Source of the DNA: Elephas maximus | Lineage: Eukaryota | NCBI RefSeq assembly: GCF_024166365.1 | Contig: NC_064841.1 | Span: 46,567,680-46,631,679 of the forward strand | Direction: 5' to 3' | Length of the DNA: 64,000 bases | Shown here: in pieces, positions 3,301-49,149 of the stretch | Layout of the letters: the number at the start of each line of letters is the position of its first letter | Position numbering within the stretch: position 1 is the stretch's first letter | Notes under the pieces: generated by a model | Database searches by the model: none | Told to the model about the DNA's origin: nothing | The model's input: only the letters and a program-made list of their open reading frames with translations | Program-made: the position numbers and the translations under genes

Positions 3301-3510
3301 AAAAAGACAATCTACGGACTTGGAAAATATTTTTGGCTACAACATATCCAACAAGGATCTAATCTCTAAAATCTGAAAGATACTACAACACCTGAACAAC
3401 AAAAAGACAAATAATCCAATTAAAAAATGAGCAAAGAATACGAACAGACAAAGAAGTCACTCGGCAGCTAATAGACACATGAGGAAATGCTTGCAATCAT
3501 TAGCCATTAC

Positions 3511-3671
3511 CAAAATAATAACCAAACCAATTGCCATCGAGTTGGTTCCGACTCATAGTAACCCTACAGGTCAGAGCAGAACCGCCCAACAGGGTTTCCA
3601 AGGAGTAGCTGGTGGATTCAAACTGCTAAACTTTTGGTTACCAGCTCGTATGCCATAGCTCTTAACCACTG
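3511..3671 (-). mobile_element. AfroSINE (tRNA-derived SINE) nested in L1-b ORF2; head slightly truncated
   Basis: Reverse complement matches AfroSINE copies in the window (ccagctcgtatgccatagctcttaaccactg ... gactcatagtaaccctacagg). It interrupts the L1 ORF2 sequence cattagccatta / aaatgcaaatcaaaac. Confidence 0.85.
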
Positions 3672-3840
3672 AAATGCAAATCAAAACTACACTGAGATAC
3701 CATCTCAACCTGACATTACAGACACTAATAAAAAAAAATCAAAAAACATAAATCTTGGAGAGGTTGCAGGGAGACTGGAACTCTTAGGCATTGCTGGTAG
3801 GAATGTAAATAGGCAGGTACAACCACTATGGAAAACGATA

Positions 3841-3914
3841 TGCTGCCTCCTTAAAAGCTACAAATAGAAATACCATATGCTGCCTCCTTAAAAGCTACAA
3901 ATAGAAATACCATA
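3841..3914. repeat. 37-bp direct tandem duplication (tgctgcctccttaaaagctacaaatagaaataccata x2) inside L1-b ORF2
   Basis: Two identical adjacent copies read directly. Confidence 0.9.
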
Positions 3915-4593
3915 TGATCCAAAAATCCCACTACTAGAACTAGAACTACTACTAGAACTATATCCTAGAAAAATAAGAGCCATCACACAAATGGACATAT
4001 ACACACCCATGTTCACTGCAGCATTATTCACAATAGCATCAAAATGGAAACAACCTAAGTGCCCATCAACACATAAGTGAATAAACAAATTATGGTACAA
4101 ACACACATTGGAATACTATGCAACAATGAAGAACAATGATGAATCTGCAAAATATCTTACAAGATGGATAAATCTGGACGCCGTTATGCTAAGTAAAGTA
4201 AGTCCATTACAAAAGGACAAATACTGTATGACACCACTATTATAAAAACTCATGAAACGGTTGACACAGAAAAAGTGCAAACTTTGATGGTTATGAGGGA
4301 AGGGAAGGTGGGGGGGGAATCACTAACTACATAGTAGCTAAGCCTTAACTTTCATGAAGGGAAGGACAACACACAATATAGGGAAAGTCAGCAAAACTTA
4401 ACCACAGGACAGACAAGAGAAATGTCATAAAGACATTGAAAAGCCCTGAGGGACATAGTTACTGCCCCTGAAGGCTGGGGACTACAGTTGCAGGGGTCAT
4501 CTAGATCAAACGGCATAACATACTTCATAAAGAAAATGTTCTACTCCAACTTTGATGAGTAGCGTCTGGTGTCTTAAAAGCTTGCGAGCAGGG

Positions 4594-6201
4594 ATATGAA
4601 CACACACTTCACTAAAGAAGATATTCAGGCAGCTAACAGATACATGGGAAAATGCTCTCGATCATTAGCCATTAGAGAAATGCAAATTAAAACCACGATG
4701 AGATTCCATCACACTCAAACAAGGCTGGCATTAATCCAAAAAACACAAAATAATAAATGTTGGAGAGGCTGCGGAGAGATTGGAACTCTTATACACTGCT
4801 GGTGGGAATGTAAAATGGTACAACCACTTTGGAAATCTATCTGGTGATATCTTAAACAGTTAGAAATAGAACTACCATACAACCCAGAAATCCCACTCCT
4901 CGGAATATACCCTAGAGAAATAAGAGCCTTCACACGAACAGATATATGCACACCCATGTTTACTGCAGCTCTGTTTACAATAGCAAAAAGCAGGAAGCAA
5001 CCAAGGTGTCCATCAACAGATGAACGGTTAAATAAATTGTGGTATATTCACACAATGGAATACTACGCATCGATAAAGAACAGTGACGAATCTATGAAAC
5101 ATTTCATAACATGGAGGAACCTGAAAGGCATTATGCTGAGTGAAATTAGTCAGAGGCAAAAGGACACATATTGTATAAGACCACTATTATAAGATCTTGA
5201 GAAATAGTATAAACTGAGAAGAACACATACTTCTGTGGTTATGAGCGGGGGAGGGAGGGAGGGTGGGAGAGGGTTTTTTACTGATTAATCAGTAGATAAA
5301 AACTGCTTTAGGTGAAAGGAAGGACAATACTCAATACATGGAAGGTCAGCTCAACTGGACTGGACCAAAAGCAAAGAAGTTTCTGGCATAAAATGAATGC
5401 TTCAAAGGTCAGCGGAGCAAGGGCAGGGGTCTGGGGTCCATGGTTTAAGGGACTTCTAAGTCAACTGACAAAATAATTCTATTATGAAAACATTCTGCAT
5501 CCCACTTTGAAATGTGGCGTCTGGGGTCTTAAATGCTAACAAGCGGCCATTTAAGATGCATCAATTGGTCTCAACCCACCTGGATCAAAGGAGAATGAAG
5601 AACACCAAGGTCACACGACAACTAAGAGCCCAAGAGACAGAAAGGGCCACATGAACCAGAGACCTACATCATCCTGAGACCAGAAGAACTAGTTGGTGCC
5701 CGGCCACAATCGACGACTGCTCTGACAGGGAGCACAACAGAGAACCCCTGAGGGAGCAGGAGATCAGTGGGATGCAGACCCCAAATTCGCATAAAAAGAC
5801 CATACTTAATGGTCTGACTGAGACTAGACGAATCCCGGCGGTCATGGTCCCCAAACCTTCTGTTGACACAGGACAGGAACCATCCCCGAAGACAACTCAT
5901 CAGACATGAAAGGGACTGGACAGTGGGTAGGTGAGAGATGCTGATGAAGACTGAGCTAATTATATCAAGTGGTCACTTGAGACTGTGTTGGCATCTCCTG
6001 TCTGGAGGGGGGATGGGAGGATAGAGAGAGTGGGAAGCTGGCAAAATTGTCACGAAAGGAGTGACTGGAACGGCTGACTCATTAGGGGAAGAGCAAGTGG
6101 AGTACGGAGCAAGGTGTATATAAACTTATATGTGACAGTCTGACTTGATTTGTAAACGTTCACTTGAAGCTCAATAAAAGTTAATAAAAAAAAAAAAAAA
6201 A
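4594..6201 (+). mobile_element. 5'-truncated young L1 (L1-c): ORF2 C-terminal ~200 codons, ~1 kb 3'UTR and poly(A). Flanked by a 17-bp TSD AAAAGCTTG(C/T)GAGCAGG at 4577-4593 and 6198-6214.
   Basis: Begins inside ORF2 ([18 protein letters not shown]...). The 3'UTR is collinear with the other young copies. A16 tail at 6186-6201. Direct repeats lie immediately outside both ends. Confidence 0.85.
4596..5192 (+). pseudogene. L1 ORF2 C-terminal fragment (three ORF pieces)
   Basis: ORF-track translations carry conserved L1 ORF2 C-terminal motifs ([67 protein letters not shown]). Confidence 0.8.
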
Positions 6202-6214
6202 GCTTGTGAGCAGG

Positions 6215-7643
6215 AGGCAAGCCCAAGATGGCGGAGTAGTCAGGTGCTTCCAGTGATCCCTCTTACAACAAAGACATGAAAGAACAAGTGAAACAATTAT
6301 ATTTATGACAAGCTAGGTGCCCTGACCATCAAAACTTAGAAAACTGACTGAGTGGCAAGGGGAAGGAGAAACGGTACCGAAGCGGAGAGGAGTTGCCAGA
6401 CTTGAATCACTGGAAGCCTTCAGGCACCATTCCCAGGAGTGACTGTGGTGGGCTAGTGGTGGCGTTCAAGCCATAGTTTCTTCAGGGAGAAAGAGCCAGC
6501 CGCACAGCCTACTCACACATCCGGAACAAGACAAGAACAGGGCTCTCGGGAAAAGTTAAGTACTTCGGTATATTTTACCAACACCCCCACCAGCCCCCAA
6601 GCAGACATCAGGGGCTGTTGATTTCCCTGGGCCTGAGATAGGCGCTGCTGAGCGTGCTGAGCCATTCTCCCGGCCTTGGAGAAGGAATCAATTGACAATT
6701 GGGAGAAAAGAAAATCTGCCAGCTCCACTAAGCTTGGGGGTTCAGGACAGAAACGGCTCCTATCCAGCCATAAAGGGGCCATAGGCCTTGAATACCTATC
6801 CCCCTAGCATGGGCCTGTGTGGGCCCATTTAAGTAGAATAGACCCTTGTTGGCAGACTGCAACTGTTTCACCTGTGTGGTGGAGAGGTGGGTGATTTATG
6901 TTTGACACCACTTTGCCTATTAAACAGGGTCCTCACCTACCCACATCAAGGGCCTAAGGACTGGTGGCTCCACTCATATCACCCAACCACCCGTGACAGG
7001 GGTCCAGGGTAACTGGTACTTCCCACCTCTTACACCCAAAAGAATTGGGTGCCTGTAGTCCATCTGAAGAACCCACCCACCTGTGTGCTCTAGGGAACAG
7101 GGACCTGCTATCCTCACAGATACTCGGCGGACTATTGTCAGGCTCTGCCTTGTTCAGAGCGTGACCCCCTGCTGCAAACAGATACCTGTACCTACACCAA
7201 TCACCCATACCCCTCTAAGAATGTAGGACAGATCCTGTACCACACATTTGGTGACTAACTACCTGGACACCTTACAAGAAAAGTGAATGGACTCCTAGGT
7301 TCATGTGCCTGTTAACAGCTGCAGCCATGTGGTGACAGGATGTTAGAGTTTCAAAGGAGAAATATAAGCAAGCTAACTCAAGCAACTTATTTAGGCATAT
7401 CAAAACAAAACAAAGCAAGAAGCTAGGATACAGTAAGCAAACACAAAATAAAGTATTACAATAACTTATAACTGGCTCAGAGAGAAGGGTCAATATCAAA
7501 TCACATAAAGAAGCAGACCATAATCACTTCAACAAGCTGTCAAAACAAAAAATTAAGGTATCATCTTGATGAAGGTGCCTTCCTGAAATTACAGAATTCT
7601 TCAAGAAAACAGGAACAAGATCAGGCAATACAAAGAATAAGCC
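6215..7643 (+). mobile_element. 5' segment of a full-length L1 (L1-E): the 5'UTR (begins aggcaagcccaagatggcgg) and about the first 55 codons of ORF1. This host element is split by the L1-D insertion.
   Basis: Collinear with the L1-D 5' region (7644-9083) at about 75-80% identity. Ends at ...caatacaaagaataagcc, exactly the ORF1 position where L1-E resumes at 15252. Confidence 0.75.
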
Positions 7644-8929
7644 AGGAGGCAGACCCAAGATGGCGGAATACACAGACGCTTCCATCGAGTCCTCTTTACA
7701 ACAAAGACCTGAAAAAAAAAGTGAAAAGAGTACGTTTGTGACAAGCTGGGAGCCCTGAGCATCAACGGCAAGCTTAGACAACGAACTGAGGGGCAGGGGG
7801 AGGAATAGACCGTTCAGAAGCGGAGAGGAGTTGCCAGACCTGAATCGCGGGGAGCCCTCAGGCACCATTCCCTGAGTGGCAGTGGTGGTGGCGGTGGCAG
7901 AGGGCTGGTCCTAGCGTTAGGCCATAATTTCCTCAGGGAGAAGCAGCCAGCCACACAGCCCACTCACACCTCCAGAACCTGAGGAGAACAGCATGCTCTT
8001 GGCAAAAGCTAAGTACTTCCGTATATTTTACTGTGCCCTCCCACCCCAAAGCTAGCTTCAGCAGCTGAATCCCTAGGCCTGAGATAGACCCTGGTGAGCA
8101 CCTAGAGCCATCCTCCCGGCCTTGGGGAAGGAAAAAATTTCCATCTTGGGGGAAAAGATAATTTGCTAGCTCCATTAACGGGGGGAGCTCAGGAGAGAAG
8201 CAGCTCCTGTCCAGGCATAAACCATCCATGGACCTTGAGCACCATTCCCTTCAGCATGGACCTGTGTAGGCCTATTTCGGGAGAATAGGCCCTTGTTGGC
8301 AAACTCCAACCGTTTTAGCGGTGCAGTGGAGAGGCGGGTGTTTGACGTTTGATATTGCTTTCCCTATCAAACAAGGTCCTCACCTACCGACAACAGGGAC
8401 CTAAGGACTGGTGGTTCCATGTGGGTTGCCGAGCCACCCGCAAAAGGGGCCCAAGGATAACTGGTACCTCCCAGTCCATAAAACAAAATCTTTGGGTGCC
8501 CATGGTCCCTCTGCAGAGCCCGCCCACCAGCACACTCTAGGGAACAGAGACGCGTTTACCTCAGAGACACTTGGGGGTTGGTTCTCAGCCCCCTGTCTTG
8601 TTCAGAGCATGACCCCCTGCTGCAATCAGATATGGGTATATACGCCAATCACTCCTGCCCCTCTAAGACTGCAGGACAGAGCCTGTACCACACACTTGAT
8701 GATCAGCTACCTGGAAACCTGAGCTGAATTCATGCAAGAAAACTGAATGGACTCCTAGACTGACATACCTGATAACAGATCTAGCCAGCTTGGGACAGGA
8801 CACCAGAGCTCCAAAGGCGAAAATAATCAAGCTAGCTCACTCAAGCAATCCATAGGGGTATACCAGAACAAAACAAAGCAAGTAGCTACAACACAGTAAG
8901 CAAGCATCAAATAATACAACAACTTATAG
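7644..8929 (+). promoter_or_regulatory. L1-D 5'UTR (presumed internal L1 promoter region, ~1.29 kb)
   Basis: Its position upstream of the ORF1 ATG in a full-length element. That it acts as a promoter is inferred from general L1 biology, not read from the sequence. Confidence 0.4.
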
Positions 8930-9945
8930 ATGGCTCGGAGACAACAGTCAATATCAAGTCACATAGAGAAACAGGTCATGATCACCTCAACAGTCTATCA
9001 AAACAAGAATCTAGGGATCTTTTAGATGAAAGCGCATTCCTGGAATTACCAGACACAGAATACAAAAGCTTAATATACAGAACCCTTCAAGACATCATGA
9101 AGGAAATGAGGCAATACACAGAACAAGCCAAGGAACACATAGATAAGGCAACTGAAAAAATCAGAAAGATTTTTCAGGAACATGATGAAAAGTTTAATAA
9201 GCTAGAAAAATCCATAGACAGACAGCAATAAGAAATTCAGAAGATTAACAATAAAATATAAGAATTAGATAACTCAATAGAAAGTCAGAGGAGCAGAATT
9301 GAGCAAGTAGAAGCTAGAATTTCTGAACTTGAAGGTAAATCACTTGGCACTAATATATTTGAAGAAAAATCAGATAAAAGAATTTTAAAAAATGAAGAAA
9401 CCTTAAGAATCACATGGGACTCTATCAAGAGAAATAACCTACGAGTGATTGGAGTACCAGAACAGGGAAGGATAACAGAAAATACAGAAAAAATTGTTGA
9501 GGATTTGTTGGCAGAAAACTTCCCTGATATTCTGAAAGATGAGAAGATATCTATCCAAGATGCTCATTGAACTCCACATAAGGTAGATCTGAAAAGAAAG
9601 TCACCAAGACATATTATAATCAAGCTTCCCAAAACCAAAGATAAGGAGGCAATTATAAGAGCAGCAAAGGATAAAAGAAAAGTCACCTAAAAGGGAGAGC
9701 CAATAAGAATAAGCTCGGACTACTGGGCAGAAACCATGCAGGCAAAACGGCAAAGGGATGACATATTTAAAAAACTGAAGGAAAAAAATTGCCTGCCAAG
9801 AATCATATATCCATCAAAACTGTCTCTTAAATATGAAGGTGAAATTAAGACAATTCCAGATAAACACAAGTTGAGGGAACTCGTAAAAACCAAACCAAAA
9901 CTAAAAGAAATACTAAAGGGAATTCTTTGCTTAGAAAATCAATAA
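8930..9945 (+). pseudogene. L1-D ORF1 (coiled-coil/RRM-type ORF1p), disrupted by several stops
   Basis: Translation is collinear with the intact-looking ORF1 pieces of L1-I (…IQDAH.TPHKVDLKRKSPRHIIIKLPKTKDKE…CLPRIIYPSKLSLKYEGEIKTIPDKHKLRELVKTKPKLKEILKGIL). Stops at 9026, 9229, etc. Confidence 0.8.
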
Positions 9946-10416
9946 TATCAGGTATCAACCCAAGACTAGAACACTGGGCAGAGCAACCAGAAGTCAACCC
10001 AGACAGGGAAATCCTCCCCCGCTAAAAAACCAAAGCAATATTAAAAAAAAAAAAAAAAAAAACCCCAACACAGGGCAATGGCGATGCTATTGTATAAAAC
10101 AAGACAACATTAAAATAATAAAGAGGGACTAAGAAATGTAATCATACACCTTCCATATGGAGAGGAAGATACGGCGATACAAAGAAATAAAAGTTAGTTA
10201 TAAATTTAGAAAAATAAGGGTAAATAATATGGTAACCACAAAGGAGACAAACTACCCTACTCATCAAAATAAAATACAAGGGAAAAATACAGACTCAGCA
10301 GAAACAAAATCAACAAAAACAAATATGAAGAAAGGACAACGTACAAAGAAAATCTACTCAGCACATAAAATCAAGTGGGAAAAACAAGCTGCCAACACAC
10401 AAAAAAAGACATCAAA

Positions 10417-13400
10417 ATGATAGCACTAAATTCATACCTATCCATAATTACCCTGAATGTAAATGGACTAAATGCAGCAATAAAGAGACAGAGAGTGGCA
10501 GAATGGATTAAAAAACAAGATCCGTCTATACGCTGCCTACGAGAAACACACCTTAGACTTAGAGACATAAACAAACTAAAACTCAAAGGATGGAAAAAAA
10601 TATATCAAGCAAACAACAATCAAAAAAGAGCAGGAGTGGCAATATCAATTTCTGACAAAATAGACTTTCAAGTTAAATCCATCTGAAAGGATAAGGAAGG
10701 ACACTATATAATGATTAAAGGGACAATACACCAAGAAGATATAAGCGTATTAAATATTTATGCACCCAATGACAGGGCTGCAAGATACATAAAACAAACT
10801 CTATCACCATTCAAAAGTGAGATAGACAGCTCCACAATTATAGTAGGAGACTTCAACACACCACTTTCGGAGAAGGATAGGACTTCCAGTAAGAAGCTCA
10901 ATAGAGACACGGAAGACCTAATTCTTACAATCAACCATCTTGACCTCATAGACTTATACAGAACACTGCACCCAACAGCTGCAAAGTATGCTTTTTTTTT
11001 CTAGTGCACATGGAACATTCTTTACAATAAATCACATATTAGGTCATAAAACAAACCTTTGCAGAGCAGAATCCAAAACATCGAAATATTACAAAGCATC
11101 TTCTCAGACCACAAGCCCATAAAAGTGGAACTCAATAACAGGAAAACTAGGTAAAAGAAGTCAAACACTTGGAAACTGAACAATACCCTGCTCAAAAAAG
11201 ACTGGATTACAGAACACATTAAGGATAGAATAAAGAAATTCACAGAACCCAAAGAGAATGAAAGCACTTCCTATCAGAACCTTTTGGACACAGCAAAAGC
11301 GGTGCTCAGAGGCCAATTTATATCAATAAATGCATACATCCAAAAAGAAGAAAGGGCCAAAATCAAAGAACTATCCCTACAACTTGAACAAACAGAAAGA
11401 GAGCAAAAACAGAAACCCACAGTCACCAGAAGAAAACAAATAAAAACAATGAGAGCTCAGCTAAATGAAATAGAAAGCAGAAAAACAACTGAAAGAAATA
11501 ACAAGACCAAGAGCTGTTTTTTTGAAAAACTCAACAAAATTGATAAATCACTGGCCATACTGACAAAAGAAAAGCAGGAGAGGAAGCAAATAACCTGAAT
11601 AAGAAATGAGATGGGTGATAGTACAACACACCGAACTAAAATTAAAAGAATCATATCAGATTGCTATGAAAAACTATACTCAAACAAATTTGAAAACCTA
11701 GAAGAAATGGATGAATTCCTAGAAACACACTACCTACCTACACTAACACAAACAGAGGCAGAACAAATAAATAGGCCCATAACAACAGAAGAGATTGAAA
11801 ACGTGATCAAAAAACTCCCAACAAAAAAAAGCCCTGGTCCAGACAGCTTCACTGCAGAGTTCTACCAAACTTTCAGAGAAGAGTTAACACCACTACTACT
11901 AAAGGTATTTCAGAGCATAGAAAAGGATGGAATACTACCTAACTCATTCTATGAAGCCACCATATCCCTGACACCAAAACCAGGTAAAGACACCACAAGA
12001 AAATTATAGACCTATATCCCTCATGAATGTATATGCAAAAATCCTGAACAAAATTCTAGCCAATAGAATTCAACAACATATCAAAAAAGAATTCACCAGG
12101 ACCGAAGGGGATTCATACCAGGTATGCGGAGATGGTTCAACATTTTCAACATTAGAAAAACAATTAATGTAATCCACCACATAAATAAAACAAAAGAGAA
12201 GAATCACATGATTTTATCAATTGATGCAGAAAAGGCATTTGACAAAGTTCAACACTCATTTATGATAAAAACTCTCAGCAAAATAGGAATAGAAGGAAAA
12301 TTTCTCAACATAATAAAGGGCATTTATACCAAGCCAACAGCCAACACCACCCTAAATGGAAAGAGACTGAAAACATTCCTACTGAGATCGGGAACTAGAC
12401 AAGGATGCCCTTTAACACCACTCTTATTCAACATTGTGCTGGAAGTCCTAGCCAGAACAATTAGGCTAGATAAAGAAATAAAGGGCATCCAGATTGGCAA
12501 GGAAGAAGTCAAAGTATCTCTATTTGCAGATGACATGATCTTATACACAGAAAACCCTACGGAATCCTCCAGAAAACTACTGAAACTAATAGAAAAGTTC
12601 AGTAGAGTATCAGGATACAAGATAAACATACGAAAATCAGTTGGATTCCTCTACACCAACAAAAAGAAAATCGAAGAGGAAATCACCAAATCAATGCCAT
12701 TTACAGTAGCCCCCAAGAAGATAAAATACTTAGGAATAAATCTTACCAGAGATGTAAAAGACTTATACAAAGAAAACTACAGTACACTTCTGCAGGAAAC
12801 CAAAAGAGACTTACATAAGTGGAAGAACATACCTTGCTCATGGATAGGAAGACTTAACATTACAAAAATGTCTATTCTACCAAAAGCGATCTATACATTT
12901 AATGCAATTCCGACCCAAATCCCAATGACATTTTTCAATGAGATGGAGAAACAAATCACCAATTTCATATGGAAGGAAAACAAGCCCCGGATAAATACAG
13001 CATTTCTGAAAAAGAAGAACAAAGTAGGAGGCCTTACTTTACCTGATTTTAGAACCTATTATACTGCCACGGTAGTCAAAACAGCCTGGTACTGGTACAA
13101 CAACAGATACATGGACCAATGGAACACAATTGAGCATCCAGACATAAATCCATCCACATATGAGCAGCTGATATTTGACAAAGGCCCCAAAACAGTTAAA
13201 TAGGGGAAAGATACTCTTTTTAAAAAATGGTGCTGACATAACTGGATATCCATCTGCAAAAAAATGAAACAAGACCCATACGTCACTCCATGCACAAAAA
13301 CTAACTCAAAATGGATCAGATACCTAAATATAAAATCTAAAACGATAAAGATCATGGAAGAAAAAATAGGGACAACATTAGGAGCCCTAATACATGGCAT

Positions 13401-14240
13401 AAACAGTATAGAGAACATTATAAAGAACATAGAAGAAAACCTAGATAACTGGGAGCTCCTAAAAATCAAACACTTATGCTCATCCAAAGACTTCACCAAA
13501 GGAGTAAAAAGACTACCTACAGACTGGGAAAAAGTTTTTCGCTATGACATTTCTGATCAGCGTTTGATCTCTAAAATCTACATAATACTGCAAAAACTCA
13601 ACTGCAACAAGACAAATTACCCAATTAAAAAATGGGCAAAAGATATGAATAGACAGTTCACTAACGAAGACATTCAGATTGCTAGCAGATATATGAGGAA
13701 ATGTTCACGATCATTAGCCATTAGAGAAATGCAGATCAAAACTACAATGAGATTTCATCTCACTCCAACAAGGCTGGCATTAATCCAAAAAACACAAAAA
13801 AATAAAAGGTGGAGAGGCTGTGGAGAGATTGGAACACTTCTACACTGCTGGTGGGAATGTCAAATGGTACAACCACTTTGGAAATCGATTTGGCGCTTCC
13901 TTAAAAAGCTAGAAATAGAACTACCATACGATCTAGCAATCCCACTCCTTGGAATATATCCTAGAGAAATAAGAGCCTTTACACAAGCAGATATATGCAC
14001 ACCCATGTTTACTGCAGCACTGTTTACAATAGCAAAAAGATGGAAGCAAACAAGGTGTCAATCAACGGATGAATGGTTAAATAAATTATAGTATATTCAC
14101 ACAATGGAATACTACACATCAATAAAGAACAGTGAGGAATCTGTGAAACATTTCATAACATGGAGGAACCTGGAAGGCATTATGCTGAGTGAAATTAGTC
14201 AGTTGCAAAAGGACAAATATTGCATAAGACCACTATTATA
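10417..14240 (+). pseudogene. L1-D ORF2 (endonuclease-RT-C-terminal domain), fragmented into at least 6 ORF pieces
   Basis: The ORF track gives MIALNSYLSIITLNVNGLNAAIKRQRVAEWIKKQDPSIRCLRETHLRLRD (endonuclease start), [12 protein letters not shown] (RT) and [29 protein letters not shown] (C-terminal Cys motif). Confidence 0.85.
12124..13203 (+). CDS. Longest ORF2 piece of L1-D: reverse-transcriptase core (359 aa, not a complete gene)
   Basis: [13 protein letters not shown]…[22 protein letters not shown]…FADDMILY… These are the canonical L1 RT motifs. Confidence 0.8.
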
Positions 14241-15251
14241 AGAACTTGAGAAATAGTTTAAACTGAGAAGAAAACATTCTTTTGTGGTTACGAGAGGTGG
14301 GAGGGAGGGAGGGTGGGAAAGGGGCATTCACTAATTAGATAGTAGATAAGAAGTACTTTAGGTGAAGGGAAAGACAGCACACAATACAGGGGAGGTCAGC
14401 ACAATTGGACTAAACCAAAAGCAAAGAAGTTTCCTGAATAAACTGAATGCTTCGAAAGCCAGCGTAGCAGGGGCAGGGGTCTGGGGACCATGGTTTCAGG
14501 GGACATCTAAGTCAATTGGCATAATAAAATCTATTAACAAAACATTCTGCATCCCACTTTGAGGAGTGGCATCTGGGGTCTTAAATGCTAGCAAGCAGCC
14601 ATCTAAGATGCATCAATTGGTCTCAACCCACCTGGATCAAAGGAGAATGAAGAACACCAAGGACACAAGGCAATTACGAGTCAAAGAGACCAAAAGGGCC
14701 ACATGAACCAGCGACTACATCATCTTGAGACTAGAAGAACTAGATGGTGCCCAGCTACAACTGATGGCTGCCCTGACAGGGAACACAACAGAGCACCCCT
14801 GAGTGAGCAGCAGAGCAGTGGGATGCAAACCCCAAATTCTCATAAGACCAGACTTAATGGTCTGACTGAGACTGGAAGGACCCTGGTAGTCATGGCCCCC
14901 AAACCTTCTATTTCCCCAGGACAGGAACCATTCCCGAAGCCAACTCTTCAGACGTGGATTGGACTGGACAATGGGTTAGAGAGGAATGCTGGTGAGGAGC
15001 GAGCTTCTCGAATCAGGTGGACACTTGAGACTATACTGGCATCTCCTGCCTGGAGGGGAGATGAGAGGGTGGAGGGGGTTAGAAGCTGGTGAAAAGGACA
15101 TGAAAAGATAGAGTGGAGGGAGAGACCAGGCTGTCTCATTAGTGGGAGAGTAATTGGGAGTGTTTAGCAAGGTGTATATGGGTTTTTGTGTGAGAGACTG
15201 ACTTGATTTGTAAACTTTCATTTAGAACACAATAAAAATTATTTAAAAAAG

Positions 15252-18200
15252 AAGAATAAGCGAAAGAACACAGAGATAAAGCAGTTGAAAAAATTAAAAT
15301 GGTTATTCAAGAACATAATGAAAAGTTTAATGAGCTCCAAGAATCCATAAACAGCAATCAGAAATTCAAAAGATGAGCAAAGTACAGAACTAGAAACAAT
15401 AGAAAGTCAGAGAAGCAGACTTGAGGAACTGGAAGGCAGAATTAGTGAGATGTAAGAAAAAACACTTGGCACCACTATATGCAAAGAAAACTCTAAAATA
15501 AGAATTTAAAAATTTGAAGAAACCCTAAGAATCATGTGGGACTCTATCAAGTGAAATAACCGACAAATGATTGGATTACCAGAACAAGGAGGGGTAACGG
15601 AAAATAAAGAGTGAAGTGTTGAAGACTTGCTGGCAGAAAACTTCCTTTATATCCTGGAAGATGAAAAGATATCTATGCAAGATGCTCATCGAACTCCCCA
15701 TAAGGTATATCTCAAAAGAAAGTCATCAAGACATAACCAAACTTGCCAAATCCAAAGATAAACAGAGAATTTTGAGAGAGGCTAGTGATAAATAAAAAGT
15801 CACCTATGAAGGAGAGTCAGTAAGAATAAGCTCGGACTACTCAGCAAAAACCATGCAGGCGGGAAGACAATGGGATGACTTATATAAGGCATTATATGAA
15901 AAAAATTGCTAGCCAAGAATTATACATCCAGCAAAACTGTCTGTCAAATATGAAAGCAAAATTAGCACATTTCCAGATGAACAGAAGTTTAGGGGATATG
16001 TAAAAACCAAACCAAAATCATAGAGAAATACTAAAGGAAGTTCTCTGGTTAGAAAATCAGTAATATCAGATATTAACCCAAGAAAAGAACACAGGACAGA
16101 GCAACGAGATGCCGTCAACCCAGACAGGGAAATCACAAAATAAATCAAGATAAAAAATCTCTCAAAGCAGGGAAACAGCGATGCCAATATGTAAAAGAAT
16201 ACAACATTGAAACAATAAAGAGGGACTGAGAAATGTAGTCATACATCTTTCAGATGGAGAGGAAGACAAGGTGATATAAAGCTATAAATGTTAGGTTTAA
16301 ACTTAGAAAAATAGGGGTAAATATTAAGGATAACCACAAAGGAGACTAACGAAACTAGTAATCAAAATAAAATACAAGAAAAAAATAAACACTACGCAGA
16401 AACAAAATCAATAACAATGAATAAGAGGAAAAAACAATATATAAAGATAAACCACTCTGCACAAAAAATTAAGGGGGAAAAAGAAACTATCAACAACATG
16501 CAAAAAAAGACATCAAGGTGACAGCAATAAACTCATACCTGTCCATAATAACCCCAAATATAAATGGACTAAATGTACCAATAAAGAGACAGAGTACCAG
16601 AATGGATAAAAATACGCGATCCTGGAAGGCATTATGCTGAGCGAAATGAGTCAGAGGCAAAAGGACAAATATTGTATAAGACCACTATTATAAGATCTTG
16701 AGAAATAGTAAACCTGAGAAGAACACATACTTTTGTGGTTACGAGGGGGGGAGGGAGGGAGGGTGGGAGAGGGTTTTTTATTGATTAATCAGTAGATAAG
16801 AACTGCTTTAGGTGAAGGGAAAGACAACACTCAATACATGGAAGGTCAGCTCAATTGGACTGGACCAAAAGCAAAGAAGTTTCCGGGATAAAATGAATGC
16901 TTCAAAGCTCAGCGGAGCAAGCGCGGGGGTCTGGGGAACATGGTTTGCGGGGACTTCTAAGTCAATTGGCAAAATAATTCTACTATGAAATCATTCTGCA
17001 TCCCACTTTGAAATGTGGCGTCTGGGGTCTTAAATGCTAACAAGCAGCCATCTAAGATGCAGCAATTGGTCTCAACCCACCTGGAGCAAAGGAAAATGAA
17101 GAACACCAAGCCCACATGACAACTAAGAGCCCAAGAGACAGAAAGGGCCACATGAACCAGAGACCTACATCATCCTGAGACCAGAAGAACTAGTTGGTGC
17201 CCGGCCACAATCGATGACTGCCCTGACAGGGAGCTCAGCAGAGGACCCCTGAGGGAGCAGGAGATCAGTGGGATGCAGACCCCAAATTCTCATAAAAAGA
17301 CCAAACTTAATGGTCTGACTGAGACTGGAGGAATCCCGGCGGTCATGCTCTCCAGACCTTCTGTTGACACAGGACAGGAACCATCCCTGAAGACAACTCA
17401 TCAGACATGAAAGGGACTGGTCAGCGGGTGGGAGAGAGACGCTGATGAAGAGTGAGCTAATTATATCAGGTGTACACTTGAGACTGTGTTGGCAACTCTT
17501 GTCTGGAGGGGGGTGGGAGGATAGAGAGAGAGGGAAGCCGGCAAAATTGTCAAGAAAGGAGAGACTGAAAGGGCTGACTCAAGACGGGGAGAGTAAGTGG
17601 GAGTAGGGAGTGAGATGTATGTAAACTTATATGTGACAGACTGATTGGATTTGTAAACGTTCACTTGAAGCTTAATAAAAATTATTATAAAAAAAAAAAT
17701 ACACGATCCATTTATATGCTGCCTACAAGAGACACACCTTAGACTTAGAGACAAACTAAAACACAAATGATTGAAAAAATATATCAACCAAGTAACAACC
17801 AAAAAAGAGCAGAAGTGGCAATATTAATTTCTGACAAAATAGATGTTAAAGTTAAATCCACCATAAAGGATGAGGAAGGACACTATATACTGATTAAAGG
17901 GACAATGTACCAGGAGGATACAACTACATTAAATATTTATGCATCCAATGACAGGGCTACAAGATACATAAAACAAACTCTAACAGCACTGAAAAATGAG
18001 ATAGACAGCTCCAGAATTATAGCAGGAGACATCAACACACCATTTTGGTGGAGGACAAACCATCCAGACAGAAGCTCAATAAAGACATGGATGATCTAAA
18101 TGCCACGATGAGCCAACTTCACCACAGAGACATCTATAGAACACTCCACCCAACGGTAGCCAAGTATACTTTCCTTTCTAGTGCACATAGAACACTCTCT

Positions 18201-21200
18201 ACAATACACCACATATTAGGTCATAAAGCAAGCCTTAGCAAAATCCAAAACATCAAAAATATTACAAAGCATCTTCTCTGACTATAAGGCCATAAAGCAG
18301 AAATCAATAACAGAAAAATGAGGGAAAACAAATCAAACACTTGGAAACTGAACAAGAGCCTGCTCAAAAATGATTGGCTTCTATATGACATTAAGGATGG
18401 AACAAAGAAATTCATAGAATCCAATGAGAATGAAAACATTTCCTACCAGAACCTTTGGGACACAGAGAAAGCAGTGCTCAGAGGTCAATTTATATCAATA
18501 AATGCACACATACAAAAAGAAGAAAGGGCCAAAATCAAAGATTTATCTGTACAACTTGAACAAATACAAAGAGAGCAACAAAGGAACCCCGCAAGCATCA
18601 TAAGAAAGCAAATAATAAAAATTTCAGCAGAATTAAATGTAATAGAGAACAGAAAAACAACTGAAAGAGTTAACAAGACCAAAAGCTGCTTCTTGAAAAA
18701 CTTAACAAAGTCAATAAGCCAATGGCCAAAAGAAAAACAGGAGAGGAAGCAAATAACACGAATAAGAAGTGAGATGGGCAATATCACAACAGACCCAACT
18801 GAAAATAAAAGAATCATAATAGATTACTACGAAAAATTGTATGCTAATAAATTTGAAATCCTAGAAGAAATGGATAAATTTTTAGAAACACACTACCTAT
18901 CTAAACTAACACAAACACAGGCAGAAAAATTAATAAACCCATAACAAAAGAAGAGCTTGAAAAGGTAATCAAAAAAATTCCCAACAAAAAAAAAACCCTG
19001 GCCGGAACAGCTTCACTGGAGAGTTCTACCAAATTGTCAGGGAAAACTTAACACTACTACTAAAGGTATTTCAGAGCACAAAAAATGATGGAACACTCCC
19101 TAACTCATTCTGTGAAGCCCTCATATCCCTGATACCAAAACCGGGTAAAGATACTACAAAAAAAAAGAAAATTATACACCTATATCCCTCATGAACTTAG
19201 ATGCAAAAATCCTCAACAAAATTCTAACAAATAGAATTCAACAACATATCAAAAAAATAATTCACCGTGACCAAGTGGTAATACAAGGTATGGAGGGATG
19301 GTTCAACATTAGAAAAACAATGAATGTAATCCATCATATAAATCAAACAGAAGACAAGAACCACATGATCTTATTAATTGATGCAGAAAAGGCATTTGAC
19401 AAAGATCAACACCCATTCATTATAAAAACTCTCAGCAAAATAGGAATAGGAGGAAAATTCCCAAGCATTTATACTAAGCCAACAGCCAACATCATCCTAA
19501 ACAGAGAGAGTCTGAAAGCATTCCCCTTGAGATCGGGAACCGGACAAGGATGTCCTTTATCACCACTCTTATTCAACATTGTGCTGGAAGTCCTACCCAG
19601 AGCAATTAGGCTAGATAAAAAAATAAAGGGCATCCAGATTGGTAAGGAAAAACTAAAAGTATCTCTATTTCCAGATAACATGATCTTATACACAGAAAAC
19701 CCTAAGGAATCCACAAGGAAACTACTGAAACCAATAGAAGAGTTCAGCAGTGCATCTGGATACAAAATAAACATACAAAAATCACGTGGATTCCTCTAGA
19801 CCAACAAAAAGAACATCAAAAAGGAAATCACCGAATAAATACCATTTCCAGTAGCCCCAAGAAGATAAAACAGAAATAAATCTTACCAGAGACATAAAAG
19901 ACCTATACAAAGAAAACCACATGATGCTACAGCAAGAAACCAAAAGAGACCTACATAAGTGGAAAAACATACCTTGCTCATGGATAGGAAGACTTAACAT
20001 TGTAAAAATGTCTATTCTACCAAAAGCGATCCACAGATACAATGCAATTCCTATCCAAATTCCAATGACATTTTTTACTGAGATGGAGAAACAAATCACT
20101 AACTTCATATGGAAGGGAAAGAGGCCCCAGATAAGCAAAGCATTACTGAAAGAGAAGAACAAAGTAGGAGGCCTCCAACTATCTGATTTCAGAACATATT
20201 ATATTTTCACAGTACTCAAAACAGGCTGGTACTGGTACAACAACAGATACATACACCAATGGAACAGAATTGATAATCCAGATATAAATCCATCCACATA
20301 TGAGCAGCTAATATTTGACAAAGGCCCAAAGTCAGTTAAATAAGAAAAAGACAGTCTCTTTAGCAAATGGTGCTGGCATAACTGGATATCCATCTGCAAA
20401 AAAATGAAACAAGACCCACACCTCACACCATGCACAAAAAACAAACTCAAAATGGATCAAAGACCTAACTATAAAATTTAAAATGCTAAAGATTATGGAA
20501 GAAAAAATAGGGACAATGCTATGAGCCCTAATACATGTCAAAAACAGTATACAAAACATTACTAACAATGCAGAAGTAAAACTAGATAACTGAGAGCTCC
20601 TAAAAATCGAACACCTATGCTTATCCAAAGCATTCACCAAAAGAGTAAAAAGATTACCTACAGACCGGGAAAAAAATTTTAGCTATGACATTTCTGATGA
20701 GCATCTGATCTCTAAAATCTACATGATACTGCAAAAACTCAACTACAAAAAGATAAATAACCCAATTGAAAAATGGTCAAAGGATATGAACAGGCACGTC
20801 ACCAAAGAAGACATTCAGACAGCTAACAGATACATGAGGAAATGCTCAGGACCATTAGCCATTAGAGGAATGCAAATGACCACCCCAACAAGGCAGGCAT
20901 TAATCCAAAAAACACAAAATAATAAATATCGGAGAGGTTATGGAGAGACTGGAACACTTAAAAACTGCTGGTAGGAATGTAAAATGGTATAACCACTTTG
21001 GAAATCCATTTGACGCTTCCTTAAAAAGCTACCACATGATCCAGCAATCCCACCCCTTGGAATATATCCTAGAGATATAAGAGCCTTCACACAAACAGGT
21101 ATATGCACACCCATGTTCATTGCAGCACTGTTTACAACAGCAAAAAGATGGAAGCAACCAAGGTACCCATGAACGGATATATGGATAAATAAATTATGGT

Positions 21201-22347
21201 ATATTCACACAATGGAATACTACACACACATCGATAAAGAACAATGATAAATTCATGAAACATTTCATAACATGGAGGAATCTGGACGGCATTTCGCTTA
21301 GTGAAATCAGTCAGTTACAAAAGGACAAATATTTTATAAGACCACTATTATAAGAACTTGAAAAATAGTTTAAACTGAAAAGAAAATATTCTTTGATGCT
21401 TAAGAGAGTGGGGATGGAGGGAGACGAGTATTCACTAATTAGGTAGCAGATAAGAACTATTTTAGGTGAAAGGAAAGACAAAGCGCAATACAAGAGAGGT
21501 CAGCACAACTGGACTAAACCAAAAGCAAAGACGTTTCCTAAATATACTGTACGCTTCGAAGGCCAGCATAGCAGGGGTGGGATTTGGGGACCATGGTTTC
21601 AGGGTACATCTAAGTCAACTGGCATAATAAAATCTATTAAGAAAACATTCTGCATCCCACTTTGGAGAGTGGCGTCTGGGGTCTTAAATGCTAGTAAGTG
21701 GCCATCTAAGATGTATCAACTGGTCTCAACCCACCTGGAGCAAAGGAGAACAAAAACACCAGGTAATTATCAGCCCAAGAGACAGAAAAGGCCACATAAG
21801 CCAGAGACTACATCACCAGAGACCAAAACACCTAGATGGTGCTCAGCTACAGCCAATGTGCTCTGACGGGGAACACAACAGAGAACCCCTGAGGGAGCAG
21901 GAGAGCAGTGGGATGCAGACCTCCAATTCTTGTAACAAGACCAGACTTAATGGTCAGACTGGGACTGGAGGGACCCCAGAGGCCATGGTCCCCAAGCCTT
22001 CTGTTAGCCCAAGACAGGAACAATTCCCAAAGCAAACTGTTTAGACAAGGACTGGACGGGAATAGGGGACAGAAAATTATACTGGTGAAGGACGAGCTTC
22101 TTGGATCAAGCGGACACAAGACTATGTTGACATCTCCTGTCTGGAGCAGGGATGAGATGTAAAGAGGGGGGCAGAATCTACCTGAATGGACATGAGGAGA
22201 GAGAGCGGAGAGAAGAACTGTGCTGTCTCATTGGAGGGAAAGCAATTAGGAGTGTATGGCAAGTTGTATGTAAATTTTTGCATGAGAGACTGACCAGATT
22301 TGGACACTTTCACTTAAAGTAAAATAAAAATTAATTTAAAAAAAAAT
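15252..22347 (+). mobile_element. 3' segment of L1-E: remainder of ORF1, ORF2, 3'UTR and poly(A) at 22335-22347, with L1-f nested inside
   Basis: Begins aagaataagcgaaagaacacagagataaagcag, which is ORF1 codon ~55. ORF1 and ORF2 are collinear with L1-D and heavily disrupted. The 3'UTR subfamily differs from the young copies. Confidence 0.8.
16623..17699 (+). mobile_element. 5'-truncated young L1 3' end (L1-f: ~1.07 kb, 3'UTR plus poly(A)) inserted into the L1-E ORF2 endonuclease region. 15-bp TSD AAAAATAC(G/A)CGATCC at 16608-16622 and 17695-17709.
   Basis: L1-E ORF2 reads …QSTRMDKNTRS | …insert… | IHLYAAYKRHTLDLETN, continuous across the insert. The insert is about 95% identical to L1-c and L1-I 3'UTRs. 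Confidence 0.9.
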
Positions 22348-23009
22348 GCTAGATGCATCTAGATGCATCCATTGGTCTCAACCCACCTGAAGCAAAGGAG
22401 AACAAAGAACACCAAAGACATAAGGTAATTATCAGCCCAAGATACAGACAGGGCCACATAAACCATGGACTATATCAGCCTGAGACCAAAAGAACAAGAT
22501 GGTACCTGGCTACAACTGATGACTGCCTTGAGAGGGAACACAACAGAGAACCCCTGAGGCAGCAAGAGAGCAGCAGGATGCAGACCTCAAATTCTTGTAA
22601 AAAGACCAGATTTAATGGTCCGACTGAGGCGAGAAGCACCGCAGAGGTCATGGTCCTCAGACCTTCTGTTAGCCCAAGACAGAAACCATTCCCAAAGCCA
22701 ACTTTTCAGACAGGGATTGGACTGGACTATGGAATAGAAAATGATACTGGTGAAGAATGAGGTCCTTGGATCAAGCAGACACATAAGACTATGTGGGCAG
22801 CTCCTATCTGGAGAAGAGATGAGAGGGCAGAGGGGGGCAGAAGCTTGCCAAATGGACATGGAAATAGAGAGTGGAGAGAAAGAGTGTGCTGTCTCATTAG
22901 AGGGAGAGCAACTAGGAGTATACGGCAAGGTGTATATAAGTTTTTGTATGTGAGACTGACTTGGTTTGTAAACTTTCACTAAAAGCACAATAAAAATTTT
23001 TTTAAAAAG
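22348..23009 (+). mobile_element. L1 3'UTR fragment (L1-g) ending aataaaaatttttttaaaaag
   Basis: Collinear with the L1-E and L1-h 3'UTRs from ...gctag(c)...atgcatccattggtctcaaccc to the terminus. Confidence 0.75.
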
Positions 23010-24643
23010 ACAAAAAACCCATCTAAAAATGGGCAAAGGATATGAACAGACAATTCACCAAAGAAGACATTCAGACAGCTAACAGATACGTGAGGAAATG
23101 CTCAGGATCATTAGCCATCAGGGAAATGCAAATCGAAACCACAATGAGATTTCATCTCACTCCAACAAGGCTGGCATTAATCCAGAAAACACAAAATAAT
23201 AAATGTTGGAGAGGTTGAGGATAGACTGGAACACTTATACACTGTTGGTGGTAATGCAAAATGGTACAACCACTTTGGAAATTGATTTGGCCCTTCCTTA
23301 AAAAGCTAGAAATAGAACTACCATACGATCCAGCAACCCCACTCCTTGGAATATCTCCTAGGGAAATAAGAGCCTTTACACAAACAGATAAATGCACACC
23401 TATGTTCATCGCAGCACTGTTTACAATAGCAAAAAGATGGAAGCAACCTAGGTGCCCATCAACAAATGAATGGATACATAAATTATGGTACATTCACACA
23501 ATGGAATACTACACATTGATAAAGAACAATGATGAATCCGTGAAACATTTCACAGCACAGAGGAATATGGAAGGCATTATGCCAAGTGAAATCAGTCAGT
23601 TGCAAAAGGACAAATATTGTATAAGAGCAGTGTTACAAGAACTCAAGAAATAGTTTAAACAGAGAGGAAAATACTTTTTGGTGGTTACGATAGCGTGGAG
23701 GGGAATTCATTAATTAGTTAAACAAGAACTATTTCAGGTGAAGGGAAGACAACACACAATACAGGAGAGGTCAGCACAACTGGACTAAACCAAAAGCAAA
23801 GAAGTTTCCTAAATATACTGAACGCTTCAAAGGCCAGCATAATGGGGTGGGGATTTGGGAAACATGGTTTCAGGGGGCATCTAGGTCAACCGGGATACTA
23901 AAGTATATTAAGAAAACATTCTGCATTCCACTTTGGAGAGTGGCATCTGGGGTCTTAAATGCTAGCAAGCGGCCATCTAAGATGTATCAATTGGTTTCAA
24001 CCCATCTAGAGCAAAGGAGAATGAAGAACACCAAAGATACAAGGTAATTATCAGCCCAAGAGACAGAAAGGGCCACATGAACCAGAGACTACATTAGCCT
24101 GAAACCAGAAGAACTATATGGTACCCGGCTACAACCAACGACTGCCTTGACAGGGAACACAACAGAGAATCCCTGATGGAGCAGGAGAGCAGCAGAATGC
24201 AGACCTAAAATTCTCATAAGAAGACCAGAATTAATGGTCTGACTGAGACTAGAAGGACCCCGGAGGTCATGGTCCCCAGTCCTTCTGTTAGCCCAATACA
24301 GGAACCATTCCCAAAGCCAACTCTCAGGCAGGGATTAGACTGGACTACGGGATAGAAAATGATACTGGTGAGGAGTGAGCTTCTTGGATCAAGTAGACTC
24401 ACGAGACTATGTGGGCAGCTCCTGTCTGGAGGGGAGATAGGAGGGCAGAGGGAGTCAGGAGCTGGCTGAATGGGCACGAAAATAGAGAGTGGAGAGAAGG
24501 AGTGTGCTGTCTCATTGGGGGAAGAACAACTAAAAAAAATAATATAAAACCAAAACCCAGAGTATATAGCAAGGTGCATTTAAATTTTTGTGTGAGAGAC
24601 TGACTTGATTTGTAAACTTTCACTTAAAGCACACAAAAAAAAA
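23010..24643 (+). mobile_element. 5'-truncated L1 (L1-h): ORF2 C-terminal part, 3'UTR and A9 tail
   Basis: Starts at ORF2 ...[21 protein letters not shown] (disrupted). The 3'UTR ends ...cacttaaagcacacaaaaaaaaa. Confidence 0.8.
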
Positions 24644-25565
24644 GTTTGTGAGCAGCCATCTAAGAAATATCTACTGGTCCCATACCGTCCAGAGCAAAAG
24701 GCAATGAAGAAAATCAAAGACAGAAGGGAAAGACTAGTCCAAAGGACTAATGGACCACAACTACCACAGACTCCACCAGCCTGAGCCTAGAATAACTAGA
24801 TACAGTGGCAGCTCCAACAGGGATCACAATAAAGGGTCCCTGACAGAGTAGAAGAAAATGCAGAACAAAATCAAAATTCACAAAAAGACCAGACGTACTG
24901 GTCTGACACATACTGGAGGAACCCCTGAGACTATGGCCCCCAGATACCCTGATAACTCAGAGCTGAAGCCACTCTTGAAGTTCATCCTTCAGCCAAAGAT
25001 TAGACAGGTCTATAAAACAAACAATAACATACACGAGGAATGTGCTTCTTAGTTCAATCACGTATACCAAACCAAATGGACAACACTCACCCAAAAGCAA
25101 TGAGAAGGCAGGAAAGGACAGGAAGAATGGAGGGACGGAAACAGGGAACCCAGGGTGGGGAAAGGGACAGTGTTAACACATCACAGGGTTTGCAACCAAA
25201 GTCACAAAACTGTGACCAAGTGCAAACCCTAGGTTCTGCTTGACATAACTCATATTGGCCAATAAATGAGAGACCGAGGTGGGAAGATACAAAAGGCAAC
25301 TTTATTTTGTTTTGCAAGGAAAGGAGTCAGTCAGAGCTGCTGCTGCCACCAAGGTTGCTCCCTGAGGGCAAGGTGAAATGTTACTTTTAAGGGTTCATAA
25401 GTAGGGAGTTCATACATGTTAGTAACATTCTTAATCATACTACACAGATGCTAGATTTTTGAGGTAAGCAAAGGAACCAGGATTATAATGCAGAATTGTG
25501 GGGGAGGAAGCCAAGCAAGCTGCAGGGGAATTTTCTGCATTCTGGGAACTTCTGTATTATTGCCT
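24644..25565 (+). mobile_element. Older-subfamily L1 3'UTR fragment (3' end diverged or truncated)
   Basis: Its first ~550 bp are collinear with L1 3'UTRs (gccatctaag...ggtctgac...ggaacccctgag...). The last 370 bp match the fragment at 32215-32570, which ends in an L1-type terminus with poly(A). Confidence 0.55.
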
Positions 25566-39548: not shown

Positions 39549-39705
39549 GTGGTGGCATAGTGGTTAAGTGCTACAGCTGCTAACCAAAGGGTGGGCAGTT
39601 CGAATCTGCCGGGCGCTCCTTGGAAACTCTATGGCGCAGTTCTATTCTGTTCTATAGGGTCGCTATGAGTCCGAATCCACTCGATGGCACTGGATTTGGT
39701 TTTAT
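39549..39705 (+). mobile_element. AfroSINE, 5'-truncated by ~8 bp, with a short TSD (A)GAGGTG
   Basis: gtggtggcatagtggttaagtgctacagctgctaaccaaagggtgggcagttcgaatctgccgggcgctccttggaaactctatggcgcag...gggtcgctatgagtccgaatccactcgatggcactggatttgg. Confidence 0.85.
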
Positions 39706-42857: not shown

Positions 42858-44409
42858 TAGGTCTGTCCTTACCAGTGATCAATGATTATTTTAAATGTAA
42901 ATGGATTAAACTCTCCAAATAAAAGGCAGAGATGAGCAGAATAGATTTTCAAAAAAATCCATCTGTATGCACTCCTGAAAAGACTCACTTAAGATCAAAA
43001 GACACAAATAGGTAGAAAGTAAAAGGATGGAGAAGGGGAATCACATGAAAATAGTAACCAAAGAGAGCTAGGATGGCTTTACTAGTAATAGAAAAAAGTA
43101 TATATTTTAAGTCAAATTTGTTAAAAGATTAAAAAGACATTATGTATTGACAAAAAGGTTAATCATCAAGAAGATTTAGCAATTATAAACATATACAAAA
43201 CTTACAATATATGAAGCAAAAAATTGACAGAAATAAAGGGATAGAACAACCAGACAGAAGATCGATAAGGAAATAAGGACTTGAACAATACATAAACCAA
43301 CTAGACCTAATAGACACAAATAGAACACTACACCCAACAGTAAAATACACATTTTTCTGCACTGTACACGAATCATTCTCCATGATAGACCATATCTTAG
43401 TCCACAAGGCAATTCTTAATAAATTTTTTAAAATGAAACTATAAGAAGAATCTTTTCCAACCACAATGGTATGAAACCAGAAATAAATTACAGCAGTAAA
43501 ACTGGGAAGTTCACAGATATGTATAAATTAAACAACACACTCTTAAACAACCTGAGGCCAAAGAAGAAATCACTAGGGAAATTAGAAAATACTTTGAGAT
43601 GAATGAAAACAAAAATACAGCATACCAAACATGTGGGATGAAATAACGTGCTCAGAGGAAAATTTTTTTAGCTGCGAATACCTATATTAAAAGAGAAAGA
43701 TCTCAAATCAATAACCTAACTTTATACCTTGAGGATCTAAAAAAACAAGAGCAAATTAACCCAAAGTCATCACAAAAGGGAAATAATAAAGATTGGAACA
43801 GAAATGAATGAAATAGAAAAAAAAAAAAGAAAAATCGGCCAAGCCAAAAGTTGGTTCTTTGAAGGGATCCATAAAATTGATGAATATTTAAGCTAGATGG
43901 ACAGAAAAAAAAAAAAAGAAGAAGAAGACACAAATTACTAAAGTCAGGAATGAAAATGGAGACATGACTGCAGACTTTACAGAAATTAAAAGGAATATAC
44001 GAGAATACTATGAACAATTTTATGCCAACAAGTTAGATAACCTAGATGAAATGGACAAGTTCCTAGAAACACAGACTACAGCAAATGACTCATAGAATAT
44101 TTCAACAGACCCATGGTAAGTCAAGAGACTGAATCACTAATCAAAAAATTCCCGACAAAGAAAAGCCCAGAATCAGATGGCTTTACTGTTGAATCCTACC
44201 AAATATTCAAAGAAAAATTAACGCCAATACTTCTGAAACTTTTCCAAAAAACAGAAGAGAGAATATTTCCTAACTCATTCTACGAAGCCAGCATTACCCT
44301 AATACGAAAGGCAGACAAAGGCATCACAAGGAAAGAAAACCACAAAATAACATCCCTTGTAAACATAGATGCAAAAATCCTCAACAAAATACTTGCAAAC
44401 TGGACCTAA

Positions 44410-49100: not shown

Positions 49101-49149
49101 AGACACAACCCATTCCGAATGGGTTTATAACCACAGGTATAAACAAACA

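Follow-up and report, generated by a model that had tools for sequence, protein, structure and literature searches.

The window analysed here, in which we describe a nest of long interspersed element 1 (L1) copies, is a stretch of 64,000 nucleotides from Elephas maximus (GCF_024166365.1, contig NC_064841.1, positions 46,567,680 to 46,631,679 of the forward strand), numbered from its first base. With the element L1-D (7644-15251) as the query against the whole window, a near-continuous run of L1 sequence was found on the same strand from about 400 to 24,950. Two units of about 1.43 kb stand head to tail in this run, as an earlier note on this DNA had claimed: 6212-7592 corresponds to L1-D 1-1406 (window 7644-9049), with 74.8% identity over 1423 columns. 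Both are composed of an L1 5' untranslated region (UTR) and the start of the first open reading frame (ORF1). The remaining segments are 15253-16622 (L1-D 1477-2880, 78.4% identity), 16618-17694 (L1-D 6523-7607, 81.7%) and 17696-22343 (L1-D 2867-7607, 83.2%). A collinear joint, an A tail and a target-site duplication support the proposal of that note, that L1-D is a separate full-length L1 lying inside ORF1 of an older full-length element, L1-E, which it entered by target-primed reverse transcription.

L1-D has 7608 bp on the plus strand and was delimited by self-comparison, ORFs and Pfam domains. It comprises a 5'UTR of 1286 bp (7644-8929), an ORF1 of 1016 bp (8930-9945), an intergenic spacer of 471 bp (9946-10416), an ORF2 of 3825 bp (10417-14241) and a 3'UTR of 1010 bp (14242-15251) ending in aataaa...aaaaaag. 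ORF1 matches Transposase_22 (2.4e-21) and Tnp_22_dsRBD (3.5e-20), and ORF2 matches RVT_1 (1.4e-30), with endonuclease matches below the cut-off to Exo_endo_phos (9e-5, 22.8 bits against 24.5) and Exo_endo_phos_2 (1.6e-5, 25.2 bits against 27.4). As expected for an L1, an RNA-binding domain in ORF1 is followed on the same strand by an endonuclease, here weakly matched, and a reverse transcriptase in ORF2; an RVT_1 match was also found in L1-E (19191-19799). A search with the ORF2 protein returned only generic mammalian L1 ORF2 sequences with 59-80% identity, none of them afrotherian, and the contig of the top match carries an unrelated L1 (about 70%). Every reading frame of L1-D and L1-E is broken by stops or frameshifts, and all L1 copies of the nest are now dead.

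L1-E is split into three parts on the plus strand. The first one (6212-7643) contains the 5' terminus, (AGG)AGGCAAGCCCAAGATGGCGG, whose exact first base falls somewhere in 6212-6215, the 5'UTR up to 7471 and, from a start codon decayed to CTG at 7472, the opening ~57 codons of ORF1. The second (15252-16622, L1-D 1477-2880) completes ORF1 and continues through the intergenic spacer into ORF2, and the third (17710-22346) runs from the rest of ORF2 through the 3'UTR to an A tail of 9 nt at 22338-22346. In the global alignment, the similarity of unit 1 reaches its end at 7642, equivalent to L1-D position 1485 and window position 9128. Unit 2 therefore ends at about 9128 instead of the 9083 given in the note, because L1-E carries a deletion of 29-30 nt near this point. 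The break had likewise been put at codon ~55; it does fall early in ORF1, but at codon ~57 when counted from the CTG at 7472 in L1-E and at codon ~66 in L1-D coordinates. Between the second and third parts, a young 5'-truncated L1 (16623-17694, plus strand, L1-D 6523-7607) sits in ORF2 of L1-E, identified by alignment and by the flanking repeats AAAAATACGCGATCC / AAAAATACACGATCC (16608-16622 / 17695-17709), which match at 14 of 15 positions.

The junctions of L1-D were defined by alignment. An exact 10-bp direct repeat, AAGAATAAGC, is present at 7633-7642 and 15252-15261, on either side of the element, as had been noted before. The probability of such a match by chance is 1.5e-6, or 7.5e-5 when a slack of +/-3 nt is allowed at each junction, and among 56,280 window positions checked this is the sole exact pair of 10-mers at such spacing. 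The 5' copy is followed by C at 7643 and the 3' copy by G, so that the two copies read AAGAATAAGC(C) at 7633-7643 and AAGAATAAGC(G) at 15252-15262, both on the plus strand. Since both L1-D and an independent minus-strand L1 of the window (56553-63298) have C at this next position, the duplication most likely had 11 bp originally, with one later C-to-G change in the 3' copy. The L1-D terminus, aataaaaattatttaaaaaag, adjoins the 3' copy of the repeat, with aataaa...aaaaaag at 15232-15251. The whole of L1-D, with its polyadenylation signal and A-rich tail, is therefore enclosed between short target-site duplications.

The excision check that had been set beforehand gave a clear result. After removal of 7644-15251 and of one repeat copy, the rejoined L1-E reads ...CAATACAAAGAATAAGC(C)AAAGAACAC... 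across the joint and aligns with L1-D without gaps within about 50 columns of it, with 78% identity to the left of the joint and 79% to its right. The segment 15253-16622 resumes at the point where unit 1 stops, with an overlap of 10 nt, so the host fragments are contiguous in the coordinates of the family. When both L1-D and the second nested L1 are excised, an L1-E of 7429 bp is obtained. We used the minus-strand L1 at 56553-63298, a 5'-truncated copy independent of this nest, as the third reference, and the 7429-bp L1-E, L1-D and this copy are all collinear and gapless through both joints (the second at 16622/17710). Identity between L1-D and L1-E is 77-87% over the whole length, the 5'UTR included.

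These junctions reveal the following course of events. A full-length L1-E of 7.4 kb was already resident when L1-D arrived and integrated into its ORF1 in the same orientation, the bottom strand being nicked, as inferred from the sequence, at 5'-TCTT/TG-3'. The L1 endonuclease prefers TTTT/AA, and judging from its sequence TCTT/TG would be a degenerate, acceptable site for it. The L1-D RNA was reverse-transcribed as far as the YY1 box at its 5' end, and the duplication of 10-11 bp, AAGAATAAGC(C), arose from a staggered cut of the top strand. The front of L1-E, with its 5'UTR and ~57 codons of ORF1, is now stranded directly upstream of the L1-D 5'UTR, where it mimics a tandem repeat of 1.43 kb. 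The younger 5'-truncated L1 entered ORF2 of L1-E later.

The two elements start alike. L1-D begins with AGGAGGCAGACCCAAGATGGCGGAATA and L1-E with (AGG)AGGCAAGCCCAAGATGGCGGAGTA, both starts reading (AGG)AGGCARRCCCAAGATGGCGG, and the core 13-mer CCCAAGATGGCGG has just two exact occurrences in the window, at 6222 and 7654. The motif had been taken to define the 5' terminus of this L1 lineage. It is common to L1-D and L1-E, but it is a variant of the pan-mammalian YY1-box start and is not lineage-defining: nearly all mammalian L1s start with G2-6(A/C)G2AGNCAAGATGGCGGA (Boissinot and Sookdeo, PMC5381506), in which CAAGATGGC is the YY1 site required for accurate initiation (PMC5381506). The variant differs from the published start by 5 extra bases (CAGAC in one element, CAAGC in the other) between GGAGG and CCAAGATGG. 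L1s of the elephant/hyrax type share with L1-D the YY1-box start (CAAGATGGCGGA; PMC5381506), an ORF2 of about 3.8 kb, and a comparably long spacer between ORF1 and ORF2 (471 bp, against 423-719 bp published; PMC5381506); the 3'UTR of 1010 bp is close to the 994 bp published for the elephant (PMC5381506). The spacer and the ~1-kb 3'UTR are consistent with Afrotheria, although these lengths are not proof of the host taxon. On the other hand, L1-D and L1-E are old dead copies, and their 5'UTRs do not have the triplicated motif of 70-100 bp reported for the active elephant L1.

The nest is deeper than the three generations of L1 counted in the earlier note. L1-D, the young L1 in L1-E and L1-c, all named there, were confirmed, but the whole block at 4593-24644 is shown to be embedded in the 3'UTR of F, an L1 that is much older. 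The upstream half of F (412-4591, plus strand) covers L1-D ~2474-6955 with ~70-75% identity, and its 3'UTR continues downstream at 24657-24942 on the same strand. The two halves join seamlessly, with similarly low identity on both sides of the joint (~62-75%). The ORF2 of F is itself interrupted by a repeat of ~158 bp resembling a short interspersed element (SINE), at 3515-3672. We considered 22350-23009 as the continuation of F, since the L1-D coordinates abut (6955/6957), and rejected it because identity to the other copies steps from ~75% to ~86% at that joint. The true continuation is found after the A tail of another copy, g23k, as AAAAGTTTGTGAGCAG from 24641 and then CCATCTAAG, where both the low identity and the repeated target site match.

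This target site of 16 bp, AAAAGYTTGYGAGCAG, belongs to the 3'UTR of F and is present three times in the window, always on the plus strand. Copy 1, AAAAGCTTGCGAGCAG, forms the end of the upstream half of F (4576-4591); copy 2, AAAAGCTTGTGAGCAG, stands between the A tail of L1-c and the 5' end of L1-E (6198-6213); and copy 3, AAAAGTTTGTGAGCAG, follows the A tail of g23k and runs into F (24641-24656). Copies 1 and 2 bracket L1-c, while copies 2 and 3 bracket the array formed by L1-E, a 3' fragment called Fdn, and g23k. L1-c (4593-6199, plus strand, L1-D 5999-7607) is a young 5'-truncated L1 with an A tail; it is bounded by AAAAGCTTGCGAGCAGG / AAAAGCTTGTGAGCAGG and adjoins the 5' end of L1-E, as had been reported. 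It probably inserted in the upstream copy of the target site, duplicating both the site and the first base(s) of L1-E. Copies 1 and 2 share an extra G that F does not have, and therefore L1-c arrived after L1-E.

Downstream of L1-E, Fdn (22347-23009, plus strand, L1-D ~6957-7608) is the 3' fragment of a 5'-truncated L1 younger than F, placed between the A tail of L1-E and g23k. The latter (23010-24640, plus strand, L1-D 5963-7595) is also 5'-truncated, with an A tail adjoining copy 3 of the target site, and is flanked by a possible short duplication, AAAAAG. The bases directly after the A tail of L1-E (22347-22375) read tgc tagatgcatc tagatgcatc cattgg. Either the 5' end of this 654-bp L1 fragment holds a 10-bp tandem duplication and 3 filler bases, or Fdn starts with aaa followed by tgctag, with 6 nt deleted. 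This latter start fits a microhomology of the A run with the L1-E tail.

A neighbour-joining tree built from the last ~650 bp of these copies is ladder-like, in the order (E, Fdn), g23k, D, the minus-strand L1, (c, nested). The hosts are therefore of older subfamilies than their inserts, and the ladder is consistent with every nesting relationship described above. Terminal branches are 0.117 for L1-E, 0.074 for Fdn, 0.078 for g23k, 0.087 for L1-D, 0.067 for the nested L1, 0.031 for the minus-strand L1 and 0.024 for L1-c; ages derived from these values taken alone are noisy. That L1-D is younger than its host is also seen in the longest ORF (359 aa in L1-D against 208 aa in L1-E) and in the number of CpGs of the 5'UTR (28 against 17).

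We infer that four successive L1 insertions used the one target site in F. In the most economical history, L1-E would have entered F at a perfect consensus site (TTTT/AA on the bottom strand), giving rise to the 16-bp duplication. Fdn and then g23k would have entered the T-rich boundary between an A tail and the downstream copy of the duplication, with duplications consisting of A only or of AAAAAG. L1-D and the young nested L1 may then have entered L1-E, and L1-c would finally have re-used the site in the upstream copy.

The best joint explanation is that L1-D retrotransposed into the older full-length L1-E and L1-E into the much older F, with the order of the hits deduced as above, and we give it a probability of about 95%. 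Some observations weigh against it. The A tail of L1-D has just ~6 nt and its final base is G. The 16-bp repeat flanks the whole array of L1-E, Fdn and g23k, and no duplication private to L1-E was found from 22347 onwards. The tgc tagatgcatc tagatgcatc sequence after the L1-E tail is not cleanly explained. The claim that L1-E came first in the array depends on the logic of the endonuclease site and on a weak gap in branch length (0.117 against 0.074), and the private substitutions (30 in L1-E, 21 in Fdn) do not differ significantly. We obtained no outside copy of the L1-D/L1-E family and no orthologous empty site, so the pre-insertion state was not directly seen.

Two 1.43-kb units standing head to tail, ~75% identical and opening with the same motif, could also be read as promoter monomers of a single L1, in which case 6215-7643 would be a genuine tandem 5' unit and 7644-15251 no separate insertion. 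Tandem repeats do occur in the 5'UTRs of some mammalian L1s, the elephant included (PMC5381506), and there is a superficial resemblance to the head-to-tail promoter sequences of mouse and rat. Those monomers, of ~200 bp in the mouse and ~650 bp in the rat, lie entirely in front of ORF1 and are parts of one element (PMC5381506), whereas unit 1 contains the ORF1 start and ~57 codons, is not purely 5'UTR, and pertains to a different, interrupted element. The repeats published for the elephant are motifs of 70-100 bp, not units of 1.4 kb (PMC5381506), and neither 5'UTR here has sub-repeats: Tandem Repeats Finder and direct-repeat scans of the 5'UTRs of L1-D and L1-E gave just a short run of (GTGGCG)n, the A tail of L1-c and one chance pair of 24 nt. 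The exact continuation of unit 1 is found 7.6 kb further on, past an L1 3' end, an A tail and the repeated 10-mer, and the collinearity of the rejoined L1-E contradicts a monomer, which makes this reading the least probable of all, with a negligible chance of being right. Hardly better is the chance that an assembly artefact, or an unequal homologous recombination or segmental duplication between two L1s, produced the arrangement instead of retrotransposition. The ~24 kb of L1 in the same orientation would be a suitable substrate, since L1-dense regions are prone to misassembly and ectopic exchange. Such joins, however, fall at homologous positions and do not yield a complete element that has its true 5' terminus and A tail and is bounded by a target-site duplication. 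Each of the three nested inserts here carries a distinct duplication of its own; moreover, copies 75-87% identical are too diverged for a collapse in assembly.

The array from L1-E to g23k (6212-24640) admits an alternative with more weight, although we consider it improbable: a single template-switch chimera of three L1 RNAs, or L1-E with a 3' transduction. There is one clear duplication around the whole array, Fdn having none and g23k only the possible AAAAAG; L1-E and Fdn are sisters in the tree, with private substitutions (30 and 21) not significantly different; the junction at the L1-E tail includes the 3 unexplained bases and the 10-bp duplication; and template-switch chimeras of L1 with other RNAs are known (bioRxiv 10.1101/2025.02.02.635956). 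Nevertheless, insertions into A tails generate invisible A-only duplications, and the missing duplications are expected under serial insertion as well. In addition, g23k belongs to a later subfamily than L1-E and Fdn, A-run microhomology with the L1-E tail accounts for the 5' end of Fdn, and nesting into hotspots is very common (PMC2836564). In its strict form, which we rate slightly lower still, the array would be one retrotransposition during which the reverse transcriptase changed template two times, on each occasion leaving the 5' region of one L1 RNA for the A tail of another. If true, the product would be a tripartite chimera (L1-L1-L1) with a full-length copy at its end, and not three serial insertions into a hotspot. 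We regard a single chimeric event as less likely than serial insertion.

Nested transposable elements and the hotspots within them are well documented, and genome-wide catalogues of L1s interrupted by other L1s have been compiled through transposon defragmentation and interruption analysis (PMC1914374, PMC2517846, PMC2836564). The nest described here does not differ in kind from those catalogued: an older L1 is split by a younger one that has an A tail and a target-site duplication of its own, excision of the insert leaves the host fragments collinear, and the hosts are of older subfamilies. What is somewhat unusual is that host (7.4 kb) and insert (7.6 kb) share one orientation and are both full-length, hence the appearance of a tandem 5'UTR. 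Similarly to insertion hotspots (PMC2836564), one TTTT/AA site in the 3'UTR of an old L1, together with A tails, seems to have received four insertions; unlike the hotspot surveys, this is a single locus that allows no statistics, and the order of events is deduced.

The locus is a textbook nested L1 insertion, ordinary in L1-dense mammalian DNA and part of already known biology, and it leaves L1 biology unchanged; its use is in annotation and relative dating. The stranded 5' part of L1-E could be mistaken for a promoter monomer, attributing a false tandem 5'UTR to an L1 family. The nesting order, from F to L1-E, to L1-D and to the youngest copies, provides a small relative chronology of L1 subfamilies that is independent of sequence divergence. 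In turn, the target site in its three copies illustrates clearly, at a single locus, how an endonuclease site and A tails are re-used.

The remainder of the window was also inspected, and debris of LINEs and SINEs dominates its whole length. The minus-strand L1 at 56553-63298 is a 5'-truncated copy of 6.7 kb (L1-D 849-7608) from a younger subfamily, sharing 90-94% identity with L1-c over the 1.5 kb at the 3' end. Fragments of old L1 ORF2 occur at 43689-46770 and 53469-56074, on plus and minus strands, with 65-73% identity to L1-D, and are broken by SINE copies. The SINE-like repeat of ~158 bp, which we take to resemble AfroSINE, amounts to 15 copies or fragments across both strands of the window (e.g. 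27118-27257, 39559-39705 and 49142-49288); a literature search for its sequence string gave no text match, and an Rfam scan of the window gave 0 matches. Fragments of a second, non-L1 LINE, presumably RTE/BovB-like, are found at ~33675-36260; its endonuclease piece (35246-35884, plus strand) and its reverse-transcriptase piece (34512-34910, minus strand) lie in opposite orientations. The YY1-box near-match ACCAAGATGGCTG at 36125 falls inside the coding sequence of this element and is a chance match.

Outside the window, an exact-pattern scan of metagenome contigs found no match for the 5' motif of L1-D and L1-E, and searches for loci by ORF1, in metagenome and prokaryote-genome collections alike, were negative. 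A relaxed scan of genome contigs for the motif gave 29 matches in bacterial and archaeal contigs, apparently by chance. One contig of 3800 bp in an assembly of Pseudomonas sp. MOB-449 (GCA_024054415.1, JAMXMA010000105.1) is 79% identical to L1-D 3806-7261, including the L1 3'UTR and without the L1 5' end, and is apparently a contamination from a mammalian host in a bacterial assembly.

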